Shown: positions 3,141 to 26,676, numbered from the stretch's first letter. The stretch is DNA of 26,676 nt from Bdellovibrionia bacterium (GCA_039916675.1 JBDSKY010000203.1:1-26676), one strand, 5' to 3'. The notes: a model not told the origin generated them from the letters alone. Made by a program: numbers and translations.

Positions 3141-3155
3141 AATAAGTAAACCGCC

Positions 3156-7924: not shown

Positions 7925-7952
7925 GTATCGGAGTCCTGCTATCCCAACTTAA
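7925..7952 (-). promoter_or_regulatory. sigma28 (FliA)-like promoter of the cpaB-cpaC-cpaF-tadB genes
   Basis: TTAAG-N15-TCCGATAC, 48 nt upstream of the cpaB ATG. Same spacing as the motifs at 9263-9290 and 23973-24000. Confidence 0.65.
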
Positions 7953-8010
7953 ACCTTGCTTGTTATCTCCGACCGAAAAGCTCCATATCCAATTTAACCC
8001 CTTTTGGTGG

Positions 8011-9232: not shown

Positions 9233-9262
9233 CGTGCCTCCTTTCCTTACCATGCGTCTAAG

Positions 9263-9290
9263 TGATCGGCATACCTCGATGAGGTCTTTA
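9263..9290 (-). promoter_or_regulatory. sigma28 (FliA)-like promoter of the pilin operon
   Basis: TAAAG-N15-GCCGATCA, 30 nt upstream of the flp ATG. The spacer contains the inverted repeat ACCTC-N3-GAGGT. Confidence 0.7.
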
Positions 9291-9328
9291 ATCTAGTCCT
9301 CAAATCAGGTTCACTTGCTCTACCTATT

Positions 9329-9356
9329 ATTATGCTACTTATATTTATAAAGTCAA
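9329..9356 (-). promoter_or_regulatory. sigma70-like promoter upstream of the pilin operon
   Basis: TTGACT-N16-CATAAT, each box matching TTGACA/TATAAT at 5 of 6 positions. Confidence 0.5.
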
Positions 9357-9374
9357 TACACCTAGTGCAGGCGA

Positions 9375-10133: not shown

Positions 10134-12481
10134 GGCTGGGGTTCCTCTTTCTTTTCAAAATAGTGAGCCAATTTACGTGCTGCTCGCTCGTGGTAGATAT
10201 CATCCACAGGGGAACTATCTAAACATTGTTTAAACATTTTTTTAGCGTTTTCGAAATCACTGTAACTTTCGGCAATGATTGCTTCTGTGTAAATAACCTT
10301 GGCCCGATCATGAAGAATACCTTTAACTCGGTTCATACCGGCATATCCTCCTGGATGGGGAGGGTCAATTTGGGTAGCTTTTTTGTAAAGTTTAAAGGCC
10401 GTGAAATACTCACCAGCATCTTCTTTAACTTTAGCTTCCGCCAATACGGGCTCACGCGAAGCCTTGATCAAGGCCTGACAGCGCCGGATTTCTCCTTTTG
10501 CAAGGATGCCAATTTTCTTTTGGGTGGCACCTAATTCGAGCGCTCTTTGAAAAGAATTGATTGCGGTATGGTATTTTCCGGACTTTTTGAAGCTTAGCCC
10601 CTCTTTGTAGATCACCCATGCATTTTTATTGAGTGCAGCCACGACCTCTTTCTGTTGCTCAACCAGTTTCAGTTGTTCTTTATAAGCTTCAATTTCTTTT
10701 CGCCATCCAGCTACCGCAGTATTGTCAGGATCTAGAGAGAGAATTTGTGTGAAAAGTTCGTTCACGTTTTCGTAATCTTTCTTTCCCATTCTTACTTTTG
10801 TATCTTCCACCAGGTGATTGATTTTATCTTTCAACTGGGCTTCATCTTCTTTCTTTTTCCTTTCCTCTTCCAAGGCCTCTAATTTCCTTTTCCCTTCCTT
10901 CGCATATCGTTCAATTTCACGTGCATCTTTATAGTCAGGAATCAGAGCGAATATTTTTGTAATTTCAAATATCGATTTGTCATATTCTTTATTCTTATAA
11001 TAATCAAAAGCAAGGGCGTGTTGAGCTTCTACGAACCCCTTCTGTTCTGCGGAAAGCGAGTCAAAGCTAATAGGGGCAGTAGCTATTTTCGAGCCATCAG
11101 AATTTTTCTTCACGACGGCGGTTTTTTTCCCGGCACCCTTTTTCTTTTTTATTCCAGTAGCGTCTTCGTCGGTTAAAAACATGAAAAAAAGAATCGCGGC
11201 TATCGCGGTAATAATTTGAGTTCGCTTGGGGAGTTCTTTGAAGCGCTCAAGTAGAGTCCGCTTTTGGCTACTACCTCCCGCCAGTCCCGTTATTCCCATT
11301 GTTCCCGAGCCACCGGACATCCCCTGCACTCCGGGAATTCCTCCATTTTGGTTTCCCAAACTGGGTTGAGAACTTGCGAAAGATTGGGCGATTGGCATTT
11401 CTTGCTGTTGAAACTCTTCTGGGATCAACCCGCTTTCAGCATCCATCCCCGGCTCAGGGACAGACATTTCGAAACCCTCCACAGCTGGAGCATTATCGAC
11501 TTCCATAAAATTATTTTGATTTTTGGCGTATTCCGCACTTTCTGCTTTAAACTGAAACCGAACCTCTCCAATTTTGATATAATCATCCCCTGAAAGCTCG
11601 TGATCTTGGATTTTTGCTCCGTTGACATAAGTTCCGTTGGACGAGTTCAAATCTTTAATTAGGAAATTTAAACCTGCTTTTCTTATGACAGAATTTTTCC
11701 TTGAAGACTTTTTGTCATTTAGAACGATATCGCAATCCTTACCTCGACCAATGGAGGTTTCATCTTTCGTAATACTGTAGTCCGTGACGTTTGCTGTACC
11801 CGGCTCAAAAATCAGACGGACGTTGAGCGTGCTAGCTGGAGTAAACTTAGTTTTGCCGTCATCAGCAATTAATTCGGAGGGTTCAGGCTCTGGAGAGAAA
11901 TCCTGTGAGGAATCGGGAGCGTCTAACTCGAGATTACCTTCAGACGCAAATTCCAAGGCATTTCCATCTGGGCTAATCTCTTCGGATGGCGAGTTCTCCG
12001 ATGAGCTATCTGTGACTGAAGATTCAAGTGGGTCCGGTGCGTTGTCTATTAAAGGTGCCAACGATTCGGGCGAACTAGTCTCAGGATTATCGAGGCTAAG
12101 TGCTTCAGGCGGTGTAAGGTCGAGAGTTTTAATCGATAAATCTTCCGTCCCACCTAGTGTCTGGGTTGGAGCGGTAGAAATAGATTTTCCCGCTTCCATG
12201 GAAACCTTGATAAGATAAGGTCCAATTGAAATAACGTCTGAATGATTTAGCCTCGCCGAAACGCAATCGGCACCATTTACTATGAGGGTGCCAAATTCAC
12301 TTTTTTTCTCTACTTGAAGGTTTCCCCCCACCCACTTAAAAACAGCATGGTGTCGCGAAATTCCCTGATCATCGAGCCGGATTTCTGAATCCTTCGATCG
12401 ACCAAGAACTAACTCACCCTCCACTAGGCATGTCTTAACGACTACTCCTTCTTTGATAACGGTGAGATTGGCGGTACTCAT
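10130..12481 (-). CDS. Double-FHA, single-TM, TPR/coiled-coil membrane protein
   Basis: FHA1 (LGRS..ISRHH..SEFGT) and FHA2 (IGRG..SSRKN..SSNGT) separated by an acidic Ser/Pro/Glu linker. TM QIITAIAAILFFMFL. C-terminal TPR-like helices (ELFTQILSLDPDN, AINSFQRALEL, YKKATQIDPPH). Confidence 0.82.
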   Translation of the reverse strand: MSTANLTVIKEGVVVKTCLVEGELVLGRSKDSEIRLDDQGISRHHAVFKWVGGNLQVEKKSEFGTLIVNGADCVSARLNHSDVISIGPYLIKVSMEAGKSISTAPTQTLGGTEDLSIKTLDLTPPEALSLDNPETSSPESLAPLIDNAPDPLESSVTDSSSENSPSEEISPDGNALEFASEGNLELDAPDSSQDFSPEPEPSELIADDGKTKFTPASTLNVRLIFEPGTANVTDYSITKDETSIGRGKDCDIVLNDKKSSRKNSVIRKAGLNFLIKDLNSSNGTYVNGAKIQDHELSGDDYIKIGEVRFQFKAESAEYAKNQNNFMEVDNAPAVEGFEMSVPEPGMDAESGLIPEEFQQQEMPIAQSFASSQPSLGNQNGGIPGVQGMSGGSGTMGITGLAGGSSQKRTLLERFKELPKRTQIITAIAAILFFMFLTDEDATGIKKKKGAGKKTAVVKKNSDGSKIATAPISFDSLSAEQKGFVEAQHALAFDYYKNKEYDKSIFEITKIFALIPDYKDAREIERYAKEGKRKLEALEEERKKKEDEAQLKDKINHLVEDTKVRMGKKDYENVNELFTQILSLDPDNTAVAGWRKEIEAYKEQLKLVEQQKEVVAALNKNAWVIYKEGLSFKKSGKYHTAINSFQRALELGATQKKIGILAKGEIRRCQALIKASREPVLAEAKVKEDAGEYFTAFKLYKKATQIDPPHPGGYAGMNRVKGILHDRAKVIYTEAIIAESYSDFENAKKMFKQCLDSSPVDDIYHERAARKLAHYFEKKEEPQP

Positions 12482-13497
12482 GTCTTCCCTACCTCACCTT
12501 TGATTGTCTTGACCACCTGATCGAACTGATCTCGAGCTTCAATGTAAGCAGGATTTGCTTGGTCCCGAAAGAGCAAGCGCATAACTGTTTCGAAATGCCC
12601 CTTTGCATCACGAAGCTTGCCGGCTTCGAAAGATTTTTTGCCACCTTCCAAGTTGACTTTTACTTCTTCTTCTACGGCCTTATTACAATTCTCGAGGTAC
12701 AGGGTAGCCAATACATGGTTGGGACTGATTTGAAGTACAGTCTCGAATTGAATACGAGCCCTGCCATAATTGTGCACAAAATATTCTCTGAGACCGTCCT
12801 TGAAAATAGTTTCTGCCGATTTATTGAAATCAGGTGTCGGAAGAAAAGACGCAAGATCTTGACCTGATTCATTGCTTGGGGTTTTCGATTTCGGTTTTGC
12901 AGGTTTATCCGGATCTCCTAAAAGGAGTAAGCCGAGTCCTACAACCCCAACAATATAAATAAGAGGTTTTTTACTTTTTGATGCGCTCCCTGGGGCCGCA
13001 TTCCCACCAGCGGCATCGAAGACGTTAGCGGCTCTTCCCGTAAATTGACCAAAGCTTTGATTCACCCGATCTTTAGCTGCCTGGAATGTTCTTTGATGTA
13101 ATTTAACTTGGCCGGCCGATCTAGCCGGGGACATTAAAGTCTTGGTCCCCGCTTCTGGCGATATAAACTCAAGAGTAGTTTCTCCTAGAGTAAATACATC
13201 AAAGTACTGAAGTGCTGATTCCCGCGTAGGTTTTGAATTAATTAAAATCCCGTTTGAACTTCCATGATCCTTGATTCTCCAGTTTCCCCCCGGATCTTGG
13301 ATCATCATAGCATGTAATCTTGAGGCCTTGAGATCGATCAAGACAATATCATTATCCTCACCTCGACCAATAGAGGCAGTCGGACCTGTAATGATAAAGG
13401 TGGACCCGAAGTCAGCCCCTTGGACCACTTTTAGACGGGCCCTTTCTTGAGGGTGTCGCGGTACATTCGTATGCTTGTACTTTATAGCATTACCCAT
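12478..13497 (-). CDS. FHA - TM - TPR membrane protein
   Basis: Canonical FHA (IGRG..ASRLH..SSNG), TM LIYIVGVVGLGLLLL, TPR (ARIQFETVLQISPNH; AKGHFETVMRL). Confidence 0.82.
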   Translation of the reverse strand: MGNAIKYKHTNVPRHPQERARLKVVQGADFGSTFIITGPTASIGRGEDNDIVLIDLKASRLHAMMIQDPGGNWRIKDHGSSNGILINSKPTRESALQYFDVFTLGETTLEFISPEAGTKTLMSPARSAGQVKLHQRTFQAAKDRVNQSFGQFTGRAANVFDAAGGNAAPGSASKSKKPLIYIVGVVGLGLLLLGDPDKPAKPKSKTPSNESGQDLASFLPTPDFNKSAETIFKDGLREYFVHNYGRARIQFETVLQISPNHVLATLYLENCNKAVEEEVKVNLEGGKKSFEAGKLRDAKGHFETVMRLLFRDQANPAYIEARDQFDQVVKTIKGEVGKT

Positions 13498-13504
13498 CTC
13501 ACCT

Positions 13505-15142
13505 TCAGTCGACTTTCACGGCTGCCATTACAAAACATTTTGGGGCGTTTCCTTCGGAGCCAAAGCCAGCCATATAAATTTTGCAGCCCACTCCAGAAAA
13601 ATCAAAATCCTCAACGAGTCCCTCCCCTCCAGTTGACACTCTTCCCAGCAAATCGTTGGTCATCGACCCCATTGCCTGATCTCTTGCGACACTAGAAATA
13701 TCCTGCCCCATCGCAGATTCGGACCTAATGCCACTCATTTCTTCAAATATTGAGTTTATGAAAACAATTTTTCTCTCAGAATCAAAAATTAGAAATCCAA
13801 ATTTTACAAGGTTTCCAATCATTCTCAAAGGACCGACAAATGCTTCAGTGGATTCACCGGAATTACTTGAACTTTCAGGACTATTGTTCCTGGAGACCCG
13901 TTGAATGGCTGAATTAATAATATCCCAAAGTGGATTCAGCTCTTCGATTTTAAATTCATGTGTGACTTGGTTCATGTCTCCCTTTAAAGCTCTATCAATA
14001 TCTTCGTTAAGAACTTGGAAGGGTTTCAAGGTCATGCGATATAGAATTAAAAATATGAATCCCAAAATTATCGCGGTGATCGCAAGAATTTCGGAATAAA
14101 TCACGCCTAATTCGCCCATTTCAGGAGTGGCCAAGGAACTGTCGATTGAAACTATTGCCATGGCAACAACCACATTCCTTCCGGCAGTCGGACTCAGAAC
14201 TTTCACGGGCTCTACGGCAACTAGTGTGGACTCATCTGCCTCAATCCAATAACCTGTCTCTCTGCCCGATCGAAAAGAATCCCTGGCTTTAATGGCAACC
14301 GCAGCTTCAGCCCCTGACGCCAAATATTGATTCAACTTGGCTGAAGGAGCAATAATCCGATTATCCAAATCCACCAACATGGCGGTTCTAACTCCATCGG
14401 CATTTTCTATAATTCCAATTTCACTTTTAGTTTCCATTCTATTAGCAAGAAACGGGGCATTTTGATCCGCAATCTGCCTTGCCATAAAGAGGGCCCTTCG
14501 ACCGGTTTCTTTAATAATGGCTTGATGACTTGATTCCAAAAGTGGGTAGACTGATACCGTTAAATTCAGAAACGAAAACATCAGAAACATGCCAACGGCG
14601 ATGGCGCGCCATTCATATTTGAGATTGAGACTATAAAAAATAGGCATGAACTGGTGATCAAAGGCCCAGGCAATTTTGCCGCGAAGATCTTTCGGAGGAC
14701 CTTCCAGCTGACTCATTTCAGCCCCACTTCCCATTCCTGGAATGCCTGACATCCCCCCAGGGGGATTTGGAAAGCCGCTTCCTCCCATCGCCGGAGGTGA
14801 TTGAAACTGGCTCCTTATTTTCTTAGGAAGCGCCATGGGCTTCACTGCTTTTTTTACTGGCTTAGAAAGCTCAAATACATATTCTCCCACACTAATTCGG
14901 TCGCCCTCTTTGATTTTTCTGAATTTAGTAAGAGTGCCATTCACAAACGTTCCATTGGAACTTCCCTGATCTTTTAGAATCACCTCATCGCCGGTGACTG
15001 TGAGTGTGCAATGAATTTTGGAAACCTTGGAGGAGGGAAGGACTACCGCGTTTCCTGCTTGCCGACCAATGGCTAGCTCGCCTTCTTGGACCGCATAGGT
15101 CGTACCTTGGTTTGGACCGGAAATTACGGTTAACTTATACAC
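13505..15142 (-). CDS. FHA - TM - extracytoplasmic domain - TM - HAMP - PAS-like protein with no output domain
   Basis: FHA (IGRQ..VSKIH..SSNGTFVNG); TM1 WRAIAVGMFLMFSFLNLTV; TM2 ILAITAIILGFIFLIL; HAMP-like LKPFQVLNEDIDRALKGD..EELNPLWDIIN; PAS-like FLIFDSERKIVFINSIFEEMSG. GTG start. Confidence 0.78.
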   Translation of the reverse strand: MYKLTVISGPNQGTTYAVQEGELAIGRQAGNAVVLPSSKVSKIHCTLTVTGDEVILKDQGSSNGTFVNGTLTKFRKIKEGDRISVGEYVFELSKPVKKAVKPMALPKKIRSQFQSPPAMGGSGFPNPPGGMSGIPGMGSGAEMSQLEGPPKDLRGKIAWAFDHQFMPIFYSLNLKYEWRAIAVGMFLMFSFLNLTVSVYPLLESSHQAIIKETGRRALFMARQIADQNAPFLANRMETKSEIGIIENADGVRTAMLVDLDNRIIAPSAKLNQYLASGAEAAVAIKARDSFRSGRETGYWIEADESTLVAVEPVKVLSPTAGRNVVVAMAIVSIDSSLATPEMGELGVIYSEILAITAIILGFIFLILYRMTLKPFQVLNEDIDRALKGDMNQVTHEFKIEELNPLWDIINSAIQRVSRNNSPESSSNSGESTEAFVGPLRMIGNLVKFGFLIFDSERKIVFINSIFEEMSGIRSESAMGQDISSVARDQAMGSMTNDLLGRVSTGGEGLVEDFDFSGVGCKIYMAGFGSEGNAPKCFVMAAVKVD

Positions 15143-15534
15143 AGTTTGTCTCCCTCTCTAAGGTCACATCTTTGAATTGTCCCCACCGGTAATTCCAGAG
15201 TTTGAAACGCCTTAAAATCTCGCACGGGAAGAATGCGCCAAGGCCTCAGGTTTTCACGCACTGAGGTCACCTCGACAGTATTGTCAGAAGAATTTTGATC
15301 ACGTTTCAAGAACACTACGTCGATTGGAATCTTCATAAACCACATATGAATATCGTTACACGGACGCAAAAGTAATCCCTGCCCTTCCGCAAGGGCCCGC
15401 TTGCCCATCAAACCGATAAATCGACTTAGAAAAGTAGTTGCCACAGAACACTCTTCGGCAATCCAGGTACTATTTTTGACTGATTGAATACGAATTATTG
15501 ATCCGACGGACTTTTGAATAGTTTGGGTTTTCAT
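15130..15534 (-). CDS. DUF192 (UPF0127) family protein
   Basis: VATTFLSRFIGLM..GLLL....IHMWFMKIPIDVVFL..LELPVG motifs. Confidence 0.88.
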   Translation of the reverse strand: MKTQTIQKSVGSIIRIQSVKNSTWIAEECSVATTFLSRFIGLMGKRALAEGQGLLLRPCNDIHMWFMKIPIDVVFLKRDQNSSDNTVEVTSVRENLRPWRILPVRDFKAFQTLELPVGTIQRCDLREGDKLCIS

Positions 15535-15547
15535 TCAGTTATTATTA

Positions 15548-16462
15548 TTAAGCCGGGGGATAAATCAAACTTAAGCCGAAAGGACCAAAGATCATCAACA
15601 TAACTGCCGGTAAAATAAAGAGAACTAGGGGTAATAGAACTTTTTGAGCTGCCGCAGCGCCCGCCTTTTCGGCTCGAACCATGCGTTCTGACCTAATCTG
15701 CTCCGATTGCTGCCTCAGGATTTTGCCAATGGAAGCCCCCATTTGATCGGCAGAAATCAAAATTGCCACGAAAGAGTTCACCTGCGTCATATCGATTCGA
15801 GCGGCCATCTCTCGAAGCGCTTCTTGTCGCGATGCGCCAACTTTTATTTCTTTCAAAAGCTGAGAAAATTCTTCCACTATTGGACTGGAGGGAGCTTTGT
15901 CCACAACTTTACCAATAGCACCGACAAAATCGAGCCCCGCTTCTGTGGACAGGGCCAGAAGATCCACTATGAATGGCATCGCTCTTAGGACCTGTTTTTG
16001 GCGAGTCTCGATGCGACCATTAGCCCAAAAATTAGGGTAGAACCACCCGATTAGCCCAAATCCCAGAATATAATACCAGGCTAAATCAATGAAATCGCCC
16101 GCTTTTAGCATTCCACCCACGAGTGGGAAAAAAACGATCAAGGCGACTTTAAAAGAAATAAATTCGTCGGCAGTCAGCTCTTCTTTAAGCCCTGCTGCAA
16201 TAATTTTTCTTCGAAAGAATTTTCTCTTTTTATCCCAGAATGGCTTACCGCGGATGATTGGAACAACATACTGCGTAAAAAAAGGCCGGAGAAACTTAAC
16301 CAGCGGATTGCTAGCTTTGCGATCGCGCAGCTCGTCTAAATTCTCTTGAGCTGCACGCGACTCTTGCTCAACTAACACCATCCTAGCAACAATAAAGGCC
16401 GCCAGACCTACAAGCGCATAACCCGCATTGATAACAAACTGGCCTCGTTCAAATGCATCCAT
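15548..16462 (-). CDS. tadC: Tad pilus inner-membrane platform protein TadC (T2SS F family)
   Basis: RAMPFIVDLLALSTEAGLDF, GASRQEALREMAARI, ADQMGASIGKILRQQSEQIR, KVLLPLVLFILPAVML. Confidence 0.93.
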   Translation of the reverse strand: MDAFERGQFVINAGYALVGLAAFIVARMVLVEQESRAAQENLDELRDRKASNPLVKFLRPFFTQYVVPIIRGKPFWDKKRKFFRRKIIAAGLKEELTADEFISFKVALIVFFPLVGGMLKAGDFIDLAWYYILGFGLIGWFYPNFWANGRIETRQKQVLRAMPFIVDLLALSTEAGLDFVGAIGKVVDKAPSSPIVEEFSQLLKEIKVGASRQEALREMAARIDMTQVNSFVAILISADQMGASIGKILRQQSEQIRSERMVRAEKAGAAAAQKVLLPLVLFILPAVMLMIFGPFGLSLIYPPA

Positions 16463-17667: not shown

Positions 17668-18642
17668 TCACTCTATGAGCTTAATATCAGTCAAACGATC
17701 TTTTCGAAGCTGAAGTTTAATTTCTTTAGCTCGAGATGTATTGAGTATCTTATTAATTGAAACGACTTCTTCGACGCCAAAGACCGTGGGAGCCCGATGA
17801 TCTTTCAAGATAGACTCGACTTGTTGAATTGCCTGATGGGCCAGATCAGGCAGATTGGGCGTAATCGCGAAGACTCCAAACTTCATGTCCGTTGAAATTA
17901 GGTTTTCCGTACCTGTAATCACCGACAAACGAGATTCCTGCATTGCAGGCATCCAGACCTGATTGAAGCTAATCTGATTAATAAGAGCTGAATCCAAAAG
18001 TACCCACAAGGCACCCGTTTTATCACTATTATAGTTTTTCAAATTCTCTTTTAAAACTTCATTAATAGCTGCTTTGGAATTTCCCTTGGTTTCTACATCA
18101 ACAGCAATCAGCTCAATGCCTTCCCCTTTTAACTGACCTTGAACTTCACGAATCATGTTCTGGAAAAGACTCTTTCGATAAAAAACTACAACGTTCTTCA
18201 AAGTTTTTTCTAACAAGTATCTAAACTGAGTCACCAAAAGATAAGCAGACGGCTCAAAAGCAATTCCAGAAATTTCCTTAGAATCCTTAAGTAACTGCTT
18301 CAAGTTAAGACTCATGAGTGCAACGCCCTTAACTCTCTTTGCAGGATTGGGAAGAGCCGCGTTATATTTTAAGGCATACTCAACGGGCTTATTATCCATG
18401 AGGATAAGTAGCTGCGGCTCCTGTTTGGTCACAAGCGCCTTAAATTCATCAAAGGTCGAACTTTTCTCTAAAACTTGCTCTTTGATTTCATAACTTGTGG
18501 CGAGCTCTTCATTCATTGCTCGAAAGACTTCTTGAAATTGAACGCCTTCGCTTCGAACAAAGAGAATTTTTGGCTTAGCGCAGAAACCCAGATTTGTAAA
18601 AACTAGCTGAATCAAAACTAAAAATATTAACTTATTTTTCAT
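17668..18642 (-). CDS. Secreted periplasmic binding protein-like (ABC substrate-binding, type I-like)
   Basis: Signal peptide; alternating beta/alpha pattern (LLILMDN, VVVFY, ALWVLLDSALIN, GVFAITPN..LAHQA..V..IL). No permease or ATPase gene adjacent. Confidence 0.6.
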   Translation of the reverse strand: MKNKLIFLVLIQLVFTNLGFCAKPKILFVRSEGVQFQEVFRAMNEELATSYEIKEQVLEKSSTFDEFKALVTKQEPQLLILMDNKPVEYALKYNAALPNPAKRVKGVALMSLNLKQLLKDSKEISGIAFEPSAYLLVTQFRYLLEKTLKNVVVFYRKSLFQNMIREVQGQLKGEGIELIAVDVETKGNSKAAINEVLKENLKNYNSDKTGALWVLLDSALINQISFNQVWMPAMQESRLSVITGTENLISTDMKFGVFAITPNLPDLAHQAIQQVESILKDHRAPTVFGVEEVVSINKILNTSRAKEIKLQLRKDRLTDIKLIE

Positions 18643-19394
18643 TGGGTACAGCCCTCACAGGGCTCAAGCGATGTAAATCCAAGCGCAGCAGAGGTCACTG
18701 GAGTCAACTGAGATAGCTTCGCTACCAAGTCCTTTGTGCTTGCATCTTTCCGAACGAAAACGCCTGGAGCGTCCACAAATTCAGTCTCTTGAAGTAATTT
18801 TAACGGAGTTGTAAATTTTTCTTTTAGAATTTTCAAATTATCCGAGGAAACCATAATAAAATCCGCGGATTTAAAAATGAGAAGTGGAAATAAATCTTCC
18901 GGTTTCGTGACACCGCGGACCATTTGAAATTTTTTTCCAGTAATATCTAATAAAAAGTCGTTCAATTTTTCGCGAGGCACTTCTTCGACTACTCCGATCC
19001 TACCTGAACTTAAATCCTTATTTTTCCATTCATCTGAGAGAGCCAAAATCAAATACTTGAAGTTCTTATTGCCCGCATTGGAAAACCGGAGAACCGGACA
19101 ATAACCCGAATCGTATTTTCCAAAAAAGGAAGGTGCGATCACAATTTTGGATTTTTCTGAATTTACTTGCGCCATAAACTCTTTAAATTTTCCAAACACC
19201 ACAGGTTCTAAATCCAGCTTTTTCATCTCACTCTTAAAGGCATCTTGCCTTGTCTTGACTGTCTGCATTGTAGAGTAGTAGATCGGCAGACCTTCTGATG
19301 CGTAAACAGGAGTACAAAAAAAAGTAAAAATTACTAGACTTAAAACCTGTGAAACTCCTAGCAGCGTAGTTTGTAATTTACTTTTAAAAATCAT
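18639..19394 (-). CDS. Secreted periplasmic binding protein-like (PhnD/phosphonate-binding type II-like)
   Basis: Signal peptide (..PVYA); YLILAL..L...RIGVV and V.K..DL..LL.F..AD.I.V patterns resemble PBP2 family members. 4-nt overlap with the downstream gene. Confidence 0.5.
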   Translation of the reverse strand: MIFKSKLQTTLLGVSQVLSLVIFTFFCTPVYASEGLPIYYSTMQTVKTRQDAFKSEMKKLDLEPVVFGKFKEFMAQVNSEKSKIVIAPSFFGKYDSGYCPVLRFSNAGNKNFKYLILALSDEWKNKDLSSGRIGVVEEVPREKLNDFLLDITGKKFQMVRGVTKPEDLFPLLIFKSADFIMVSSDNLKILKEKFTTPLKLLQETEFVDAPGVFVRKDASTKDLVAKLSQLTPVTSAALGFTSLEPCEGCTQ

Positions 19395-19800
19395 TTTATG
19401 TGAAGCCTATTCAATTAAAATTACTACTATTTTGAAATGCTTTGCAAGCAAACTATAAACTATCTTATTCAATTCTCATGATGGCTCCGTAAGCAAATAC
19501 GTCAAGTAATAATCATCCACCATAAAGTATTAATTGGCTCATATTCTATTTTTTCGCAGCAGGGACTATTAAACAAAAGACACTGTCTTGTAATTGAATT
19601 GATGATTTTAACTAAACTGCTATTTGCATAAAAACGAGAACCTAGATACTTTATCTATCTGCCAAATTTTTCTGAGACTGCAAAGTTATCTAGAGAATGA
19701 GGGGCATGTATTTTTATGTTGTCGATATAGTAAGACAGTAATAATTTTAAAACAAAGTAATTTAAACTTGAATTCGAGAGAGGAATTTAGGTAGCAAAAT

Positions 19801-21987
19801 ATGAACATTACATTTAAAAAACAATCGATCGCCAGTTTATTGGCGCTCCTTTCCACATCCGGGGCATTCGCTCAGGAAGTTTCTAGCCCCATAAACTCTA
19901 GTTCCGAAGATGAACTTTCTTTGAAAGAAATCTTGGACGTTAAGGTCTCCGTCGCGTCACTCTTCGAAGAAAGAGATCTCGACGTTGGAGCTTCAGTCTT
20001 CGCGATTGATCACGATACCTGGAAGAAACAGGGAGCCCGCCGTACTTTTGAAGCAATTCGTACTGCACCAGGCACCATGGTTTATGAAAATAATATCTTC
20101 CAAGCCGGACCTACTGTTGCTACTCGCGGTTTCAATGATCCAGGCCAAATCCCTTCGATCAGCGTTCTCTTGGATGGCGTCAATATGTCCTCAATCTATC
20201 AACAATCTGCTATCCAAGCACGACCCAATATTGACCTGGGAGTCTTAGACCGGATCGAAATGATCATTGGTCCTGGTTCAACCTTGTATGGCAGCGACGC
20301 GCTTCAAGGTGTTATTTCTCTCAGAACTCCAGGCGTTGAGAAGGAAAATCTCTCTGCTTCTGTTAGAGGGGGATACTTTGGAAATTATCAATCTGAAGTA
20401 AAGTTTGCTAAGGAACTGGCTCCTAAACTCCATTTTAGTTTCAATGGGGCACTTAGTGGGCAAGACAGTCAAAACACTGGGGCTAAATATACGCCTATGG
20501 ATATACAACCAGGTGTACAAGCTGGAATGGAAGCGGGAGGAGCTCCACCATATCCCTATTTCGTTCTGGGCCAATCTGGCAGCGCCAGCAGTACACTCAC
20601 TGAGAACTTTGTTTCGAGCGCTATCGTATCCAAGCTTAAATATGAGCAAACTGAAGCTAGTTTTTATTGGACGCTTTATAACGCGAAGGGTTTCCCAGGT
20701 CCCGGAATTTCGGCTAGACAAACAGGGGTACAGACATACACGCCAAACACTGCTATCGGGGATACGGCTCGTCTAGATAGCAGTTTATTTATGGGTAAAT
20801 TGACCCAGGATTTCAACCTTCCCAATTCTGTTGATCTCCAAGCGATGGGCTATTATTGGGGTGGAAATAATTCCGCAGCTTATGGCGCGAGTGCGGGCGA
20901 TGTCGTATTGACTAATGCTACCGCTCAAACGATAGGTGATATGCGAACGGGTATCAGCTTAATTGCAAAAAGACAGTCTGACGCAAACTTCCCAGTAAGA
21001 ATCGCAGCCGGGTACTCTCTTGATTATACAAAAATCAACAGTGCAGTTGAGACGTTGCCCGGTTTAGCAGCTCGCTCTTTTGCAATCGAGGGAAAAGGCC
21101 GATCCATCAACGCAATATTTGTGGAAACAGATACTGCAATCATAGGAAGGACTCTCCATCTTTTGGCTGATGCTCGAGAAGACGTTTATTCCGATTTTGG
21201 GGGTCATCTCAGCCCCAGACTTGGCTTAATGCTTCAGCCGACCGATAATTCAGCGGTCAAAGCGCTCTACGGACACGCATTCCGAGCTCCTTCGGCTCTG
21301 GAATTACTGGGTAATGGGGGAATAGCAGGGAACGGAAATTTATCCCCAGATACTTTGGATACATTTCAACTCCAATACATGCAAAGAGCCAAGCATTGGA
21401 AATATGACATAACAGCTTATACCAGCACCTGGACTAATCAGGTTACAATTGATCCATTAACTATCACCTATAAAAACGCTACAGGCACTCCTCGTGCCTA
21501 CGGCTTAGAACTAGGCGGCCAATATGACCTGCTTGCCAACCTCCGATTAAATGGAACGGGAAGCTACGTTCGAAGCTTTGGAAATCCTGCCGAAGGTGGG
21601 GGTACTGCGCCTTACACGGTTTTCCCAACTTATATTCTCAACTGGGGATTGGATTACGAAATACCTTCTGCCCGAGTGAGTATCTCCTTGATGAATCGCC
21701 ATCAAATCAATCAGGGTCGATATATACAAGCCGCTATACCTGCACCAGGTTTGGGTAGTGTAACCACACCGGGAAGGATTACTCCAGCAACGATGGCAGA
21801 CTTCTTCCGCACAGACTTGGGAGCAACCTGGGATTTCGGCAAGAACGCGGGTGATTATCAGTTAACCTTGAATATCATCAACCTTCTCAACCGCGACCTC
21901 TACCAACCCGCCATCATTTCCAACTTTAATGGACAAATTCCACAAACTGGAATCAATGACACTATCGGATTGCGTGCTCGCATCTAA
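19801..21987 (+). CDS. TonB-dependent outer-membrane receptor
   Basis: Signal peptide (..GAFA); plug motifs VLLDGV and LDRIEMIIGPGSTLYGSDALQGVI; barrel motifs SPRLGLML..KALYGHAFRAPSALEL, LNIINLLNRDLY. Confidence 0.92.
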   Translation: MNITFKKQSIASLLALLSTSGAFAQEVSSPINSSSEDELSLKEILDVKVSVASLFEERDLDVGASVFAIDHDTWKKQGARRTFEAIRTAPGTMVYENNIFQAGPTVATRGFNDPGQIPSISVLLDGVNMSSIYQQSAIQARPNIDLGVLDRIEMIIGPGSTLYGSDALQGVISLRTPGVEKENLSASVRGGYFGNYQSEVKFAKELAPKLHFSFNGALSGQDSQNTGAKYTPMDIQPGVQAGMEAGGAPPYPYFVLGQSGSASSTLTENFVSSAIVSKLKYEQTEASFYWTLYNAKGFPGPGISARQTGVQTYTPNTAIGDTARLDSSLFMGKLTQDFNLPNSVDLQAMGYYWGGNNSAAYGASAGDVVLTNATAQTIGDMRTGISLIAKRQSDANFPVRIAAGYSLDYTKINSAVETLPGLAARSFAIEGKGRSINAIFVETDTAIIGRTLHLLADAREDVYSDFGGHLSPRLGLMLQPTDNSAVKALYGHAFRAPSALELLGNGGIAGNGNLSPDTLDTFQLQYMQRAKHWKYDITAYTSTWTNQVTIDPLTITYKNATGTPRAYGLELGGQYDLLANLRLNGTGSYVRSFGNPAEGGGTAPYTVFPTYILNWGLDYEIPSARVSISLMNRHQINQGRYIQAAIPAPGLGSVTTPGRITPATMADFFRTDLGATWDFGKNAGDYQLTLNIINLLNRDLYQPAIISNFNGQIPQTGINDTIGLRARI

Positions 21988-22011
21988 GAAGTTGAGTTAG
22001 TTCAATCAATA

Positions 22012-22054
22012 GGGGAGTCTCCTGACTTTTTCGTTCAAAGTCTGGAGACTCCCC
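22012..22054. terminator. Long hairpin downstream of the TBDR gene (terminator, processing or REP-like element)
   Basis: GGGGAGTCTCC-T-GACTTT / AAAGTC-T-GGAGACTCCCC: 17 paired bases with one T-T mismatch and a 7-nt loop. No clear U-tract. Confidence 0.5.
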
Positions 22055-22155
22055 AAGATCTGTTTCAACACCCCTCCTCTCAAATGAACCCTTAAAAGTT
22101 ATTCTTATAGACTATAGAATCAAACTTGCTAAAATCTAATTAAGGGATCAGAAAA

Positions 22156-22743
22156 ATGAAGCCTCAAGGAAAAGTATCTCCCACTATAGTGAAGAAAATT
22201 ACCAGTTTAATAAAACTGGCGTCACTATCCCAACTAAAGAGTTTTACACAAATCGAAGATTTACAAATTGAAGAACCAACCAATAACGAATTTCCTATTC
22301 GTGGCCACTGGATGGCTGTCATCTTACTCAAAGGCACAGAAATTAAAATAATTTTTAAAGCCCATTTTATGACTAAAAATGCGACTGCCTTGACAAGCAA
22401 TATCCGCAAATTCGAATCAGAAGAAAAATTAGTAACCCAGGCATTAGATTTTATTAAGGAATACTGCAACATGACTGTTGGTGCGATAAAAAGGGTCCTT
22501 GGAGAACAAGATATCTCTTCTGGAGTCAGCCTGCCTGCAATCATCCGAGGTTTTGACGACATTTTTTCTGATCGTGCCGATGGTAAGGAAAGCTTTGCGC
22601 CTTGCTGGACGCTAAAGAATCAAACAACCCAGATCGATTGCTCCGCATGGTTCGAAATTTATGAAGTCGACAGCTTTGCCGGTTTTAATTTCAAGGAAGC
22701 GGAGAATAATATTCAAGGAAACAATAACATAGAGTTTTTCTAA
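22156..22743 (+). CDS. CheX/CheC-family aspartyl-phosphate phosphatase-like protein
   Basis: LDFIKEYCNMTVGAIKRVL..SLPAIIRG matches the CheX D-x-x-x-E-x-x-N..G..SLP pattern (E102, N105). Confidence 0.65.
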   Translation: MKPQGKVSPTIVKKITSLIKLASLSQLKSFTQIEDLQIEEPTNNEFPIRGHWMAVILLKGTEIKIIFKAHFMTKNATALTSNIRKFESEEKLVTQALDFIKEYCNMTVGAIKRVLGEQDISSGVSLPAIIRGFDDIFSDRADGKESFAPCWTLKNQTTQIDCSAWFEIYEVDSFAGFNFKEAENNIQGNNNIEFF

Positions 22744-22753
22744 TGCAAAAATT

Positions 22754-23935
22754 ATGATCTCAATTAATACAAATCTGCAAGCCAATCATCAAATTCTCAA
22801 CTTATTCGAGCAATCCAAGCTTCGTATTGAAAGCATTATTGATCATCTTCCCATGTTCTTTGCTGTCATCAATGACAAGGGGATCATCTTAAAAGGAAAC
22901 ATTCAGGCCGCCGAAATATTTCAAACAGATTCGGAAGCAATTTTAGGGAAATCGCTCAAAAGCATTTTTTTGCCTGAAGCATTGGAATCATTTGAATTCA
23001 ATTTTAACCGCATTTTGGCCAAGAGCGAAACTTCTTTCGAGCTTGAAATCAACTTACAGCGAAGCGACAAGTCTCAGAGAGTACATGCTTGGAGAATTAG
23101 TGAGATCGAAAATTCAACGATTTCCAGTGGTAGAATTTTTTCTATCGTTGGCAATGATGTTACTGATTTTAAAAAAGCTCTGTCAGATCTGTACGGCGCC
23201 ACTAAAGATCTTGAAGTTACAAGAGCAGTACAGTCCCTTTTAATACCTAACAAAAGGGAACTGACTACTCAGAGCTATCGTTTAGTTTCTAGTTATCAAC
23301 CCGCAACTCAATCTGGCGGAGATTGGCTGTGGTATAACACGAAGGACGAAAACCGAAATGTTCTCTTCATAGGAGATGTTACCGGTCACGGCGCTGGTCC
23401 AGCTATGGTTACGGCCATTGTCGCGGGCTGCTATCATGCGATTAGCAGGCTACCTAACTCAAAGTTTACTTTGGGAGTCCGTGAAACATTCGAAATTATT
23501 GATAACAGCCTAAAAGATCTCGGAAATAATGATTACTGGATGACAATGTCATCTTTAGAAATCTTTCACGATAAGAAGGAAGTCAGTTGGTCGAACGCTG
23601 GCGCTCCATCCATACTTGTAATGAGAACAAATGGCGAAGTGGAAACCATTGGCGCTTCGGGCAATATATTGGGAGGGATGGACCTGGCCCTAGGGCACAA
23701 ATCCTTCGACTTTAACTCCGGAGACAGAATATTTCTGTTTACAGATGGTGCATTCGAAATCACCACGTCAACAGGGGGAAACTTTGGCTTAAAGGGGCTG
23801 AGACGTCTGTTCATGGAGACACGAAATTTATCACTAGAAGAATCACGCAAATTTTTTGAGCGTCGTTTTGTGGAGATACGTGGAGAGGCACCCCCTACAG
23901 ATGACAGTACCTTCATCCTTATTGAAAGAATTTAA
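22754..23935 (+). CDS. PAS domain + SpoIIE (RsbU/RsbP-type PP2C) Ser/Thr phosphatase
   Basis: PAS (FAVINDKGIILKGN..AAEIF); SpoIIE motifs SGGDWL, IGDVTGHGAGPAM, NAGAP, FLFTDGAFE and TDDSTF are all present. Confidence 0.9.
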   Translation: MISINTNLQANHQILNLFEQSKLRIESIIDHLPMFFAVINDKGIILKGNIQAAEIFQTDSEAILGKSLKSIFLPEALESFEFNFNRILAKSETSFELEINLQRSDKSQRVHAWRISEIENSTISSGRIFSIVGNDVTDFKKALSDLYGATKDLEVTRAVQSLLIPNKRELTTQSYRLVSSYQPATQSGGDWLWYNTKDENRNVLFIGDVTGHGAGPAMVTAIVAGCYHAISRLPNSKFTLGVRETFEIIDNSLKDLGNNDYWMTMSSLEIFHDKKEVSWSNAGAPSILVMRTNGEVETIGASGNILGGMDLALGHKSFDFNSGDRIFLFTDGAFEITTSTGGNFGLKGLRRLFMETRNLSLEESRKFFERRFVEIRGEAPPTDDSTFILIERI

Positions 23936-23972
23936 TCTTTCCGCTCAATTAGCGGCGGGCCCAATCCATAAC

Positions 23973-24000
23973 TAAAGAATTTCTTTGAGTAAACCGATAA
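23973..24000 (+). promoter_or_regulatory. sigma28 (FliA)-like promoter of the Hpt sensor gene
   Basis: TAAAG-N15-ACCGATAA, 48 nt upstream of ATG 24049. Confidence 0.7.
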
Positions 24001-24048
24001 AGCCTTTATGGCGACGTTCGGAAACTACCCAATGAAAGCACAGAGATA

Positions 24049-26676
24049 ATGATTCCATTGAGACAAAAGCTAGTAAGCATCAATCTGCTGATCTTACTTT
24101 TAGCGATAGTTTCGTTTGGCACAACTACCTACAAAGGCCTAATTGGCTTGTCAGAGAAGTTTTCAGGGTTGAATTTGCAGCGTTCGGAGTCGGTAAAAGA
24201 ATCCTACCGTAAGGTCTCCGACGAAAATATTCAAAAGATTAAAACCATTTACGAGCAAAACCTGAAAAACAAAGGCATACAGCTCCTGAGCAAGGACAGC
24301 ACTTCCTTAGCATCGATGATTGCTGACAACTCCTACACTGGGGTTGCTCAATTTTTACAAAAAACTTTTGAAAATGACCGCGACATTGTTTTGGCGACTT
24401 ATTTTACGGCGGATAAAAAAGACATTCAAGCCTGGCATTTTACATCCTCTCAATACAAAGATGGACTGGTATCGCCTACCGTTTACGACCGTAAAGCAAA
24501 AAGTTGGAGCGGGCACCTAAAAAACGGAAAAAAGGTCAAGGTCTCAGATCCCTCTATTTTAGAACTGATAAAATATAACGATAAATCTGTTAAGTTTGTG
24601 GAATATGAAATTAACGGAGAAAAAAAATTCGGCTTCGATTGTGTCATTCCATTCATAGAAGGAAAGTCAGGCAATTTGATAAAGATTGCCAGGGCAAAAG
24701 GAGAACTAGTTGGCTATTTGCGATACATTCTCTCACCCGAAGAAATGTATCGCGCAATTTCTTCGGAAAAAGCGACACTTGAAGAAAGACTAAAATCACT
24801 GGAGACTCAGAATCAAAGGATCCTAAAGACATCGCAAGAAACCGCATCCCAATCAAGCAAGCGAGTATTGGAAACCTTAGCCTTCGTAGGCTTGCTGGTC
24901 ATATTCTTCGGAACTTTAGTATCTCTAATGGGAGCGACTCGAATTTCAAATCCTGTTAAAATTTTGACCGAAATTGCAGGCAACATGGAAAAGGGCAACT
25001 ATTCCCAGACTATTAAACTTGTCAGCAATGACGAAATCGGCATTCTTGCAAATGCGTTCCAAAACATGAGCAACTCAATTCAAAGAAGAGACCAAGAGTT
25101 AGAAAATATTAATAGAAACTTAGAAGAAGCAATTGAGCTCCGAACGTTGGAGTTAAAAAATGAAAATCGAAAAATATCGGGTCTCCTAAATAACATGAAG
25201 CAGGCAGTTTTTGCGGTTTCCTCGGACTATAAAGCTGTTCCACCCGTATCTACTTTTTCTAATTCGGTCTTCAAACAACCCGTGGTCGGAAAATCGATTT
25301 TTGAATTTCTCTATAAAGACCTAGATCCCAATGGCGATCAAATGGCGAGTTTAAAATCCGCTTTGACCGCGGTCTACGGAGAGGATGATCTTCAATGGGA
25401 TCTCATGGAAGGACTATTCCCCAAGCGAATTGAAATTAAGGGAAATTCAACTGCAAAAACAATCGGAGCCGATGAATCATTGCAAGAAGACAATGAAGAT
25501 CGGGTACTACGTATCAGCTACAGCCCCCTGTTCGCAGAGAATCAAGTTATCGATAAGATTATGATGGTCGTCGAAGACATCACAAAAGTAGAATACTTAG
25601 AGAAAGAAATAATAGCTCAGCGACAGAAAGCAGAGATTCTCTTTCAGTTGACTGAGAATGACTTAGAGCTGGTGAAGGGGTACTTCAGCACCGCAGGGAA
25701 TATGTTAGCTGAGATCGCACAGACTTTGAGATCGAAAACTCCTGATGCAGCTATGATTAGCCAAGTGCTGAGACACTTACATACTGTAAAAGGAAATTCG
25801 AGGAGTTTAGATTTTTTTAGCGTGTCTAAAGTAACTCATGAGGTCGAAACTGAAGTTGAAGCTTTAAGAAAATACCTGAGTGTACCTGAGGATACTTTAA
25901 TACCACCCGAAGAACTTAAACCTCTTAGAGAGGGCGTGGCCAAAATACGTTCCGAAGTTCAGAAATACCTTCAAGTGGGTGCTCAACTTTTTGGTTTAGA
26001 GAACGACTTAGTTGTAAAAGGATCCTTCGAATTTCATGAAAAAATGGTTGCGGCGAGCTGGGATAAGCCGCCACAAAAACCCAAGATATTTCTGGCTGCA
26101 GAGATCGCTCAGGAGATCGGACATGGTGAGCTTTCACAGAGCCTCACTTCTTTGAGTTCTCCAGCATCAGAACCTCCTACCGAGGAAGAGTGGCTCAGAA
26201 TTATTCGGCAGAGCGTCTATTTGTTGTATAATTCCCCCATATTTGTTGAACATTCTCCCCTTCCAGCGGTGTGGGTGGCGCTGGGCTTAAAGCTTTGGGA
26301 AGTATCCGAAGGCTTAGAAAAATATAAAACTTCAGGATCGAGCAGTAGCGCAATGGTTGAGGCATTGGCGAAAATAGAGGATGCGTGGTCGTATACTTCT
26401 GCCGCTGGTCTATTTTTCTATGCGGGATACTTTCGCAAAATAGGGACTCTACTTGAGAGTGCAGAACATGAAGTGTTGTCGTCTCTTGAAGAAAATATGT
26501 GGGCCCAGTTTCTCTTGACCGCACGACTCCATACCAATTACAAGCTACAACCAGATGAATTGAAAAGACTGGGCACGGCACTATCGCAGTTAACAACAAA
26601 ATCAACAGACCAAGCTTCACTGCTTAAGTCGTTAAACGGTTACCAAACCTGGGTTGTATCATTATTTAATGCATTA
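24049..26676 (+). CDS. Membrane sensor with TM-periplasmic-TM-HAMP-PAS-Hpt architecture, probably a CheA-like histidine kinase; 3' end outside window
   Basis: Manual translation gives 876 codons without a stop (MIPLRQKLVSINLLILLLAIVSFG...). TM2 LAFVGLLVIFFGTLVSL; HAMP ISNPVKILTEIA..DEIGILANAFQNM; PAS-like LLNNMKQAVFAV..VVEDIT; Hpt RHLHTVKGNSR (His578, codon 25780-25782). Absent from the ORF track. Confidence 0.85.
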   Translation, partial: MIPLRQKLVSINLLILLLAIVSFGTTTYKGLIGLSEKFSGLNLQRSESVKESYRKVSDENIQKIKTIYEQNLKNKGIQLLSKDSTSLASMIADNSYTGVAQFLQKTFENDRDIVLATYFTADKKDIQAWHFTSSQYKDGLVSPTVYDRKAKSWSGHLKNGKKVKVSDPSILELIKYNDKSVKFVEYEINGEKKFGFDCVIPFIEGKSGNLIKIARAKGELVGYLRYILSPEEMYRAISSEKATLEERLKSLETQNQRILKTSQETASQSSKRVLETLAFVGLLVIFFGTLVSLMGATRISNPVKILTEIAGNMEKGNYSQTIKLVSNDEIGILANAFQNMSNSIQRRDQELENINRNLEEAIELRTLELKNENRKISGLLNNMKQAVFAVSSDYKAVPPVSTFSNSVFKQPVVGKSIFEFLYKDLDPNGDQMASLKSALTAVYGEDDLQWDLMEGLFPKRIEIKGNSTAKTIGADESLQEDNEDRVLRISYSPLFAENQVIDKIMMVVEDITKVEYLEKEIIAQRQKAEILFQLTENDLELVKGYFSTAGNMLAEIAQTLRSKTPDAAMISQVLRHLHTVKGNSRSLDFFSVSKVTHEVETEVEALRKYLSVPEDTLIPPEELKPLREGVAKIRSEVQKYLQVGAQLFGLENDLVVKGSFEFHEKMVAASWDKPPQKPKIFLAAEIAQEIGHGELSQSLTSLSSPASEPPTEEEWLRIIRQSVYLLYNSPIFVEHSPLPAVWVALGLKLWEVSEGLEKYKTSGSSSSAMVEALAKIEDAWSYTSAAGLFFYAGYFRKIGTLLESAEHEVLSSLEENMWAQFLLTARLHTNYKLQPDELKRLGTALSQLTTKSTDQASLLKSLNGYQTWVVSLFNAL

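Follow-up and report, generated by a model that had tools for sequence, protein, structure and literature searches.

A candidate trans-envelope sensing cassette linking a TonB-dependent receptor and two orphan binding proteins to a CheA-type kinase

PfeA with PfeS/PfeR in P. aeruginosa and SusC/D with hybrid two-component sensors in Bacteroides combine import by a TonB-dependent receptor (TBDR) with periplasmic detection by an inner-membrane kinase encoded nearby. In LuxP-LuxQ, TorT-TorS, AioX-AioS / ArrX-ArrS and XAC2383-XAC2382, the last reportedly a binding-protein-dependent membrane sensor, the gene for a secreted periplasmic binding protein (PBP) without a transporter of its own lies next to that for a membrane signalling enzyme possessing a periplasmic domain. 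For the kinases of chemosensory pathways, a CheW-like P5 domain was a core domain in 100% of the CheA proteins surveyed (Berry, Andrianova and Zhulin 2023, PMC10782961). We analyzed a 26,676-nucleotide stretch of DNA (the window), which is the entire contig C203 of assembly G000. Like LuxP-LuxQ and its counterparts, it encodes transporter-less secreted PBPs together with a membrane signalling enzyme that has a periplasmic domain. In this predatory-type bacterium, an outer-membrane importer and two such PBPs are tied genetically to a membrane kinase with the components of a chemotaxis kinase, in a conserved, unstudied unit.

The six genes of the window

All six open reading frames that the initial annotation had placed between 17668 and 26676 were recovered at their coordinates, and we list them here with the neighboring sequence features.

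17668..18642, minus strand: PBP_B, secreted, 324 aa, predicted class I PBP fold distant from PF04392/TrpX (signal peptide; AF2 model)
18639..19394, minus strand: PBP_A, secreted, 251 aa, predicted class II PBP fold, PhnD/PtxB/AioX/ArrX/XAC2383-like (signal peptide; AF2 model)
19395..19800, no strand: divergent PBP_A/TBDR intergenic region, AT-rich (GC ~0.35), presumed promoters
19801..21987, plus strand: TBDR, 728 aa, with signal peptide, Plug (61-171) and barrel (Pfam Plug and TonB_dep_Rec_b-barrel)
22010-22024: smaller hairpin followed by a T-run (sequence listing)
22012..22054, plus strand: 11-bp perfect inverted repeat with a 21-nt loop, a possible terminator (read directly, just 3' of the TBDR stop)
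22156..22743, plus strand: CheX1, CheX-like Asp-phosphate phosphatase, 195 aa (PF13690 and motif)
22754..23935, plus strand: PAS-SpoIIE (PP2C) Ser/Thr phosphatase, 393 aa, 10 bp after CheX1 (Pfam SpoIIE and PAS)
23973..23999, plus strand: sigma-28-like motif TAAA-N16-CCGATA(A), ~50 bp upstream of the sensor start (pattern match)
24049..26676, plus strand: membrane sensor kinase, first 876 aa, open at the contig end (Pfam HAMP and Hpt)

The remainder of the window holds a Tad-pilus/FHA/RHS locus and a NagZ-like GH3 gene. As the initial annotation had noted for the vicinity of these genes, we found no ABC importer, FecR or ECF sigma gene, here anywhere in the window. The layout is looser than at most of the loci described below, with the PBPs divergent from the TBDR and separated from the sensor by three genes and ~4.6 kb. 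Sigma-70-like matches in the PBP_A/TBDR intergenic region did not rise above chance expectation. Downstream of the TBDR is a repeat resembling a terminator, and transcription of the sensor may start from a promoter of its own. A sigma28-like promoter shared with the pilus genes had been suggested earlier, which our search does not bear out: the pattern TAAA-N14-17-CCGATA gave a single match in the window and at least one match in 26 of 100 shuffles. The match at 23973..23999 is thus non-significant and provides no evidence of function.

Both PBP_A and PBP_B carry N-terminal signal peptides, and the 4-bp overlap of their genes constitutes translational coupling. Neither matched a Pfam family at threshold. 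Because of their predicted folds, with a pLDDT of 88 for PBP_A (Foldseek E 1e-12 to 1e-10) and of 92 for PBP_B (top folds 3lft, 6hni and 3lkv, E 1e-14 to 1e-12), we are confident in the model-based assignment of both as periplasmic binding proteins, each modelled as a complete two-lobed PBP. The predicted likeness of PBP_A to PhnD is one of fold and not of sequence membership in PF12974 (PhnD / Phosphonate-bd), which had no match in PBP_A even at E 10 and matched 2 of 15 family members weakly (best E 0.006). PBP_B had no Pfam match to PF04392 ABC_sub_bind, and 15 of the 17 members of its family matched NF041285 TrpX weakly (best E 1e-8), far under the 390-bit cut-off; with scores below threshold and no adjacent permease, we rejected PF04392/TrpX membership. 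A YfiR (DUF4154) identity was likewise rejected, given no PF13689 match at E up to 10 and folds that are those of two-lobed PBPs.

The TBDR has a signal peptide of ~24 aa and a Plug domain starting at residue 61, and no match to an STN signalling extension was found on it. With no STN, FecR or ECF sigma in the window, identity as a FecA-FecR-FecI-type transducer was discarded.

CheX1 scored 25.9 bits against PF13690, just below the cut-off of 27, and its G015 orthologue scored 31.2 bits. Compared with the CheX/CheC reference active-site motif, D/S-x3-E-x2-N-x22-P, CheX1 reads D98-x3-E102-x2-N105-x21-P127, and the x21 spacing recurs in CheX2, a second CheX described below. Orthologues of CheX1 were found at G015, G001, L028, L029 and L034. 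The metal-binding motifs of the PAS-PP2C protein (DVTGHG, TDG and DD) are intact. K2, a soluble second kinase that occupies the same slot in other cassettes, has an N-terminal PAS homologous to the PAS domain of this protein, which is present only in the Bacteriovoracaceae versions.

The sensor and its probable continuation on a second contig

The sensor begins with TM helices at ~2-27 and 272-296, which enclose a periplasmic domain of ~245 aa; as a lead only, this domain may be Cache/PDC-like. HAMP, a PAS-like domain, Hpt and a helical linker follow TM2 in that order. The Hpt domain is a match to PF01627, and its His578 lies inside HTVKG, which fits H-x-[IVL]-K-G. Since the window is a whole contig, the protein is cut at residue 876. 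Over this length it is 39% identical to residues 9-883 of a 1210-aa kinase from locus L028, and the remaining kinase (900-1206, CheA P3-P4) is encoded by another G000 contig, C552, where a fragment aligns to the P3-P4 region of the L028 protein. We infer the joining of C203 to C552 from abutting alignments rather than from overlapping DNA.

The P3-P4 region of the L028 orthologue scored 182 bits against NF041336 and matched the CheA structures 4xiv and 1b3q (T. maritima CheA) at E 1e-46. No match to a CheW-like P5 domain was found in either the L028 kinase or the C552 fragment. HATPase_c ends at 1208 of 1210 residues in the former and at 316 of 319 in the latter, such that the protein stops within ~3 residues. 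Judged from these alignments, the sensor is a putative CheA-type kinase, and more than an Hpt protein, whose predicted core is P3-P4 and ends after P4. The initial annotation was therefore right to describe a membrane Hpt protein with a periplasmic domain of this size, and its description was incomplete, as the contig end had cut a CheA-type kinase. Downstream of the kinase end, C552 encodes a receiver whose CheY active site is complete, together with CheX2, another CheX bearing D-x3-E-x2-N; these genes support the His-Asp output proposed earlier. Of the downstream partners that had been anticipated, the CheY-like receiver is thus in place on C552, and no STAS or anti-sigma gene was found there or in the window. 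A partner-switching output is not supported by what these two contigs contain, and the PAS-PP2C is lineage-specific.

Conservation of the cassette

We compared 18 loci, 17 of them informative, from Bdellovibrionota, Fibrobacterota and metagenomes; their sources include Bacteriovoracaceae, Pseudobacteriovorax, Pseudobdellovibrionaceae and Fibrobacterota MAGs, and identities among the loci cited are 25-55%. PBP_A is followed directly by PBP_B in 17 of 17 informative loci. A kinase with a homologous periplasmic domain was found in the same cluster in 14, often with a stop/start codon overlap with the kinase (G015, L026, L028 and L035-L038), and a TBDR was present in 13. No SBP-dependent permease or ATPase was seen beside the PBP pair in any of the 17. 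A profile of the PBP_A family retrieved 566 cluster representatives, five of which are PBP_A::PBP_B fusions (counted as 50%-identity clusters). One such fusion turned up independently in two samples, where its gene sits immediately between the kinase and a gene linked to a TBDR. Based on the adjacency of the PBPs, the counts for kinase and TBDR, the lack of a permease and the fusions, we conclude that the linkage is not due to chance. The receptor, both binding proteins and the sensor hence hold up as the linked unit proposed in the initial annotation, with a conserved neighborhood and no importer permease beside any pair.

In L028 and L029, which carry the nearest homologues of the PBPs, close orthologues of the window TBDR adjoin those PBP genes. 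Only six Plug-domain genes were found in G000, two of them flanking its two PBP pairs. The TBDRs of different cassettes belong to different subfamilies and are similar at the plug level only; the PBPs and sensor domain stay homologous. No TBDR was found next to the G015 and L025 copies. This kinase is absent from three triads (the G000:C481 paralogue, L030 and L031), and therefore the input unit is not exclusive to it. In a set of 41 relatives, the phyletic pattern is the same for PBP_A, PBP_B and the kinase periplasmic domain: all three occur in G000 and G015 only. A further genome, G001, has a kinase/CheX/REC/PAS-PP2C set in which the kinase N-terminus is cytoplasmic, and no PBPs were found in it. 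When 301 genomes of the phylum were sampled, the PBP_A family was found in only 2, and it occurs also in Fibrobacterota, a distribution that lends no support to the prey-derived cue suggested earlier.

Proposed mechanism, alternatives and comparison with known systems

With synteny, fusions and the lack of a permease as its basis in comparative genomics, a trans-envelope sensing role for the cassette is well supported. For ligand entry, contact between the PBPs and the sensor, the direction of phosphoryl transfer and the output in the cell, we infer the following. A ligand too large or too scarce for porins would enter via the TBDR and be captured in the periplasm by a two-part co-receptor, in which class II PBP_A and class I PBP_B act as one unit. 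The loaded co-receptor would act on the putatively Cache-like periplasmic domain of the kinase, and the signal would pass through HAMP and PAS to the CheA-type core (Hpt/P1, P3 and P4). Since this core has no CheW-like P5, the kinase should need no chemoreceptor or CheW, and it probably reads the imported molecule without chemoreceptors. It would phosphorylate the single-domain CheY-like receiver, which two CheX-like phosphatases would reset. The PAS-PP2C would be an accessory confined to Bacteriovoracaceae, standing in for the second, soluble PAS-Hpt-CheA-like kinase of other versions. The absence of a DNA-binding regulator makes a protein-protein target, for example a motility or pilus apparatus, the probable output. 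In our judgment it is reasonably probable that the six genes represent a copy of a conserved cassette for trans-envelope sensing that operates by this mechanism.

Alternatively, uptake could come first, with the TBDR and PBPs feeding an ABC transporter encoded elsewhere and the kinase sharing the PBPs or only regulating the route. Dual use of SBPs is established, as MBP serves both transport and Tar, and ChvE works with VirA. PBP_B is distantly related to TrpX-type ABC SBPs and PBP_A to PhnD-type ones, and G000 has BPD_transp_2 permease genes in two pairs, on C173 and C415. However, these are LivH/LivM-like pairs, whereas PF04392 systems usually have a single-permease layout. The PBP pair adjoins no SBP-dependent permease or ATPase in 17 loci, shows translational coupling with the kinase in several, and tracks the kinase sensor domain in phyletic pattern, leaving uptake quite unlikely as the primary role.

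Signalling of occupancy or stress without capture of a free ligand is also unlikely, though slightly less so. Here the PBP-fold proteins would regulate the kinase as YfiR does, or report to it what state the plug or TonB box of the TBDR is in, a FecA/FecR-like route built from different parts. Cassettes of TBDR, periplasmic regulator and sensor do recur with YfiR-like proteins (NCBIfam NF053590 and NF053592, both weak matches here), and TBDR subfamilies vary across cassettes as the PBPs and sensor domain stay homologous. Yet each of the two proteins is modelled with both lobes of a complete PBP, no STN extension is present on the TBDR, no FecR or ECF sigma gene was found, and some cassettes (G015 and L025) have no TBDR nearby. 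Lastly, the TBDR/PBP and CheX/PP2C/kinase genes could be merely adjacent and functionally unrelated, as the window appears to contain separate transcription units, given the divergent promoter region, the hairpin after the TBDR and the 113-bp gap before the sensor. The same association is nevertheless seen in more than one phylum, accompanied by gene fusions and a common phyletic pattern, and identities of 25-55% argue against near-identical copies of one mobile element; this explanation is strongly disfavored and very improbable.

Returning to the sensing cassette, its parts resemble several known systems. As in YfiBNR and the TBDR/YfiR-like/sensor-kinase neighborhoods of NF053590 and NF053592, the latter also with a TBDR, a periplasmic regulator is encoded with a membrane signalling enzyme, but the periplasmic proteins here are two-lobed PBPs and not DUF4154/YfiR, and scores are low (TBDR, 83.6 bits against a cut-off of 645; kinase, 30.7 against 194). 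FecA-FecR-FecI also ties an outer-membrane TBDR genetically to an envelope-spanning signalling pathway; unlike it, the cassette has a TBDR lacking STN and includes neither a FecR-like anti-sigma nor an ECF sigma factor. A likeness to PfeA-PfeS/PfeR and SusC/D may be proposed in outer-membrane crossing via a TBDR and periplasmic detection by a kinase encoded nearby. The PfeS/PfeR and SusC/D sensors bind ligand directly and have classical HisKA transmitters and DNA-binding outputs, whereas the cassette interposes a PBP pair and has a CheY-like receiver and CheX.

The CheA-CheY-CheX pathways of Thermotoga and Borrelia share with the cassette the Hpt H-x-[IVL]-K-G motif, the P3-P4 core, a single-domain CheY-like receiver and the CheX D-x3-E-x2-N motif. 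In contrast to the surveyed CheA proteins (PMC10782961), the cassette kinase has no CheW-like P5 after its Hpt and P3-P4. It carries its own TM sensor, HAMP and PAS; no MCP, CheW, CheB or CheR genes were seen in cassette neighborhoods. Tentatively, and somewhat short of an even chance, this could be a chemoreceptor-free, CheW-free chemosensory-type pathway in which the role of transmembrane receptor falls to the CheA-derived kinase, fed by the TBDR via a class I/class II PBP heterodimer, with a CheY-like output steering a motility or pilus apparatus. If true, it would represent a distinct and horizontally mobile design by which scarce or large molecules are sensed. The cassette has the orphan PBP folds and the conserved adjacency to a membrane sensor (14/17 loci) that characterize LuxPQ-type systems, and AioX, ArrX and XAC2383 appear to share the PhnD-like fold modelled for PBP_A. 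It differs from LuxPQ, TorTS, AioXS and XAC2383-2382 in its linked TBDR, in a CheA-type Hpt-P3-P4 transmitter in place of a HisKA kinase or GGDEF enzyme, and in having two PBPs of different structural classes that form an obligate, sometimes fused, pair.

Gene content of the window and the truncated kinase

The source genome, G000, is a fragmented MAG of 578 contigs (80.8% complete), and the window is the entire contig C203. Its genes are arranged as follows.

1-16462: Tad-pilus/FHA/RHS locus, then a NagZ-like GH3 gene
17668-18642, minus strand: PBP_B, a secreted binding-protein-fold protein
18639-19394, minus strand: PBP_A, a second secreted binding-protein-fold protein, with a 4-bp overlap with PBP_B and co-transcribed with it
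19801-21987, plus strand: TonB-dependent receptor (TBDR), divergent from the PBP genes
22156-22743, plus strand: CheX-like gene (CheX1)
22754-23935, plus strand: PAS-SpoIIE/PP2C gene
24049 to contig end, plus strand: membrane sensor

The initial annotation had read the last six of these as a candidate trans-envelope signalling cassette with no importer, FecR or ECF sigma genes nearby. This observation is confirmed, since all six genes are present, the whole window yielded no gene for an ABC importer, a FecR protein or an ECF sigma factor, and the TBDR has no STN extension. The PBP genes and the sensor gene belong to different transcription units with ~4.6 kb between them. Directly after the TBDR stop codon lies a perfect 11-bp inverted repeat with a 21-nt loop (22012-22054).

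The sensor had been described as a membrane Hpt protein. Within the window, 876 residues are encoded, comprising TM1, a periplasmic domain of ~245 aa, TM2, HAMP, a PAS-like region and an Hpt domain with His578 in an H-T-V-K-G motif. The membrane location, Hpt and periplasmic domain thus stand, and the description needs amending in that the protein is a CheA-type kinase truncated by the contig end. A 1210-aa orthologue at comparison locus L028 shares 39% identity with these 876 residues over its positions 9-883; its C-terminus corresponds to Thermotoga CheA P3-P4 (E 1e-46), and the protein stops straight after P4. Another G000 contig, C552, starts with an open frame aligning to residues 900-1206 of the same orthologue, and by these alignments the frame almost certainly encodes the rest of the window kinase. 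No exact DNA overlap was found between the window end and C552; we infer the join from the abutting protein alignments. Atlas matches suggest a Cache/PDC-like periplasmic domain, which we treat as a lead only.

A CheW domain was present in every CheA of a published survey (PMC10782961). The window kinase has none and is therefore CheA-like, not a CheA. The 3.4-Mb G000 assembly contains seven or more additional CheA-P4-like kinase genes (contigs C291, C231, C543, C542, C316, C272 and C98), so that this genome seems to have an expanded set of CheA-type cores. Downstream of the kinase end, C552 carries three genes.

C552 (L045) 4162-5013, minus strand: protein of 283 aa that has TM helices at its N-terminus and a long coiled-coil stretch; its gene separates the kinase end from the receiver gene
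C552: CheY-like receiver with residues D12, D13, D57, T87 and K109
C552: second CheX-like gene (CheX2) with the motif D94-x3-E98-x2-N101

The 283-aa protein had no Pfam match or family and was not seen in other cassettes.

The binding-protein pair and its conserved neighborhood

Neither PBP_A nor PBP_B was matched at threshold by a Pfam or NCBIfam model, and structure models of both were built with family alignments. PBP_A (pLDDT 88) was predicted to adopt the class II fold of PhnD/PtxB, in common with the signalling proteins AioX, ArrX and XAC2383 (Foldseek E 1e-12 to 1e-10). For PBP_B (pLDDT 92) the model shows a class I fold, as in PF04392/TrpX-like proteins such as 3lft, 6hni and 3lkv (E 1e-14 to 1e-12). 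The weak sequence matches of their relatives agree with these predicted folds: PF12974 was touched weakly by two of 15 PBP_A relatives, and the TrpX model, far under its cut-off, by 15 of 17 PBP_B relatives. Co-folding of the sensor periplasmic domain (30-275) with PBP_A (33-251) and PBP_B (23-324), using purpose-built alignments for all three, gave a score of 0.00, which counts neither for nor against binding.

To follow the pair across genomes, we collected 18 loci, 17 of them informative, and scanned them with purpose-built profiles. Two loci are from G000; the others are from a sister Bacteriovoracaceae MAG, from metagenomes, and from named MAGs assigned to Pseudobacteriovorax, Pseudobdellovibrionaceae and Fibrobacterota (four Fibrobacterota MAGs). 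PBP_B directly follows PBP_A in every locus. A kinase with a homologous periplasmic domain and HAMP-PAS-Hpt-P4 architecture lies in the cluster in 14 of the 17 informative loci, often overlapping the PBP_B stop codon (G015, L026, L028, L035-L038), and a TBDR is present in 13. The initial annotation had named conservation of the six-gene neighborhood as a check; judged from synteny, the linkage of PBP pair, kinase and TBDR is real. CheX-like and single-domain receiver genes are common among the loci, and TBDR subfamilies vary between cassettes. No SBP-dependent permease stands next to the PBP pair in any locus; BPD_transp_2 permeases are present elsewhere in G000.

The sister genome (G015), of the same family, is labelled Bacteriovoracaceae and encodes PBP_A, PBP_B, kinase, CheX and PAS-PP2C in that order on a single strand. 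Its kinase (L012, G015:C90, 1113-4744) consists of two ORFs of 724 and 494 aa with a 28-nt overlap within a poorly conserved linker, reflecting either a real split or an assembly frameshift. Of 41 relatives, the same two genomes yielded PBP_A, PBP_B and the periplasmic domain of the kinase. A variant in the relative G001 (L011, G001:C23, 1023-9159) comprises a related Hpt-CheA-like kinase that is cytoplasmic, its N-terminus included (1063 aa, no TM), together with a CheX-like protein, a receiver and a PAS-PP2C; no PBP_A or PBP_B was found in G001. Divergent from this kinase is a Peripla_BP_6 (LivK-like) gene.

Triads lacking the window-type kinase were found at G000:C481, L030 and L031. Only six Plug-domain genes occur in G000, two of which flank its two PBP pairs. 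The second, paralogous triad of G000 (L022, G000:C481, 4486-9598) encodes, on one strand, a TBDR, a PBP_A-like protein (33% identity) and a PBP_B-like protein (41% identity), with no CheA-like kinase after it. The triad is followed by a convergent gene for a protein with HATPase_c_2/HATPase_c and STAS-like DUF4325 domains; this gene recurs in no other locus and was dropped as a candidate PP2C partner. At the edge of the same contig (2-973, minus strand), a 324-aa ORF truncated by the contig end combines ankyrin repeats with a RING-type zinc finger, a eukaryote-like pair, and is possibly a secreted effector or contamination.

Searched against 1.84 billion cluster representatives, the PBP_A profile matched 566, and five of these are PBP_A::PBP_B fusions (570-614 aa). 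One fusion, seen in two independent samples, is preceded by a TBDR gene and a 324-aa gene and has the kinase gene just after it. Immediately before this fused cassette (L046/L047, 330-12386), and on its strand, lie flhA, flhF and a gene of the sigma-70 family (FliA-like), a hint of some connection with the flagellar regulon. Beside the cassette of L026/L027 (3824-7563), an IS110-family transposase separates a 383-aa Plug-containing fragment from a 328-aa ORF, apparently having inserted into a second TBDR gene.

Outputs, promoter and distribution

His-Asp and partner-switching outputs had been put forward, with inspection of downstream genes for CheY-like, STAS or anti-sigma partners as a check. 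A CheY-like receiver was indeed found on C552; partner switching is not supported, as no STAS or anti-sigma partner was found in the window or on C552. The PAS domain of the PP2C protein is homologous to the N-terminal PAS of K2 (E 4e-16; up to 2e-26 for relatives), a soluble PAS-Hpt-CheA-like second kinase that comes after CheX in other cassettes. The Bacteriovoracaceae PP2C appears to have taken the slot of K2.

The suggested sigma-28-like promoter shared with the pilus genes could not be upheld: the sole window match to a strict pattern (23973-23999) precedes the sensor gene and no other, and is not significant, being equalled in 26 of 100 shuffles. We also reject as unsupported the reading of the ligand as a prey cue: at E 1e-10 or better, PBP_A relatives turned up in 2 of 301 genomes sampled from the phylum, a sporadic occurrence, and the cassette is also found in Fibrobacterota. 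This distribution probably reflects horizontal transfer. The Tad pilus is needed for predation, and the cassette adjoins the Tad pilus locus in G000; no functional tie of the cassette to predation was found in this analysis.

A proposed sensing route and known systems

From gene content, folds and synteny, we infer a route of which every further step is conditional. The TBDR would import a ligand, which a PBP_A/PBP_B co-receptor would capture. The loaded co-receptor would then act on the Cache-like domain of the kinase, and the signal would pass via HAMP and PAS to the CheA-type core. Phosphorylation of Hpt His578 would be followed by transfer of the phosphoryl group to the CheY-like receiver, which CheX1 and CheX2 would reset.

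Sensors that depend on a binding protein are already known, as are import-then-sense routes through TBDRs. What appears new, at the level of genes and predicted folds, is the obligate pairing of a class II with a class I PBP, its tie to a TBDR, and a CheW-less CheA-type membrane kinase with CheY and CheX; our literature search found no description of a PBP pair, TBDR and CheW-less CheA-type kinase in combination. Two structurally different binding proteins that are obligately paired and sometimes fused are unusual, and the pair offers a concrete handle for ligand discovery. If the model is true, CheA-type catalytic cores would be able to act as self-contained membrane sensors outside chemoreceptor arrays. 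Likewise, the proposed route would give TonB-dependent receptors a third way to feed signalling, the other two being cell-surface signalling of the FecA type and direct sensing in the periplasm (PfeS, Bacteroides hybrid sensors).
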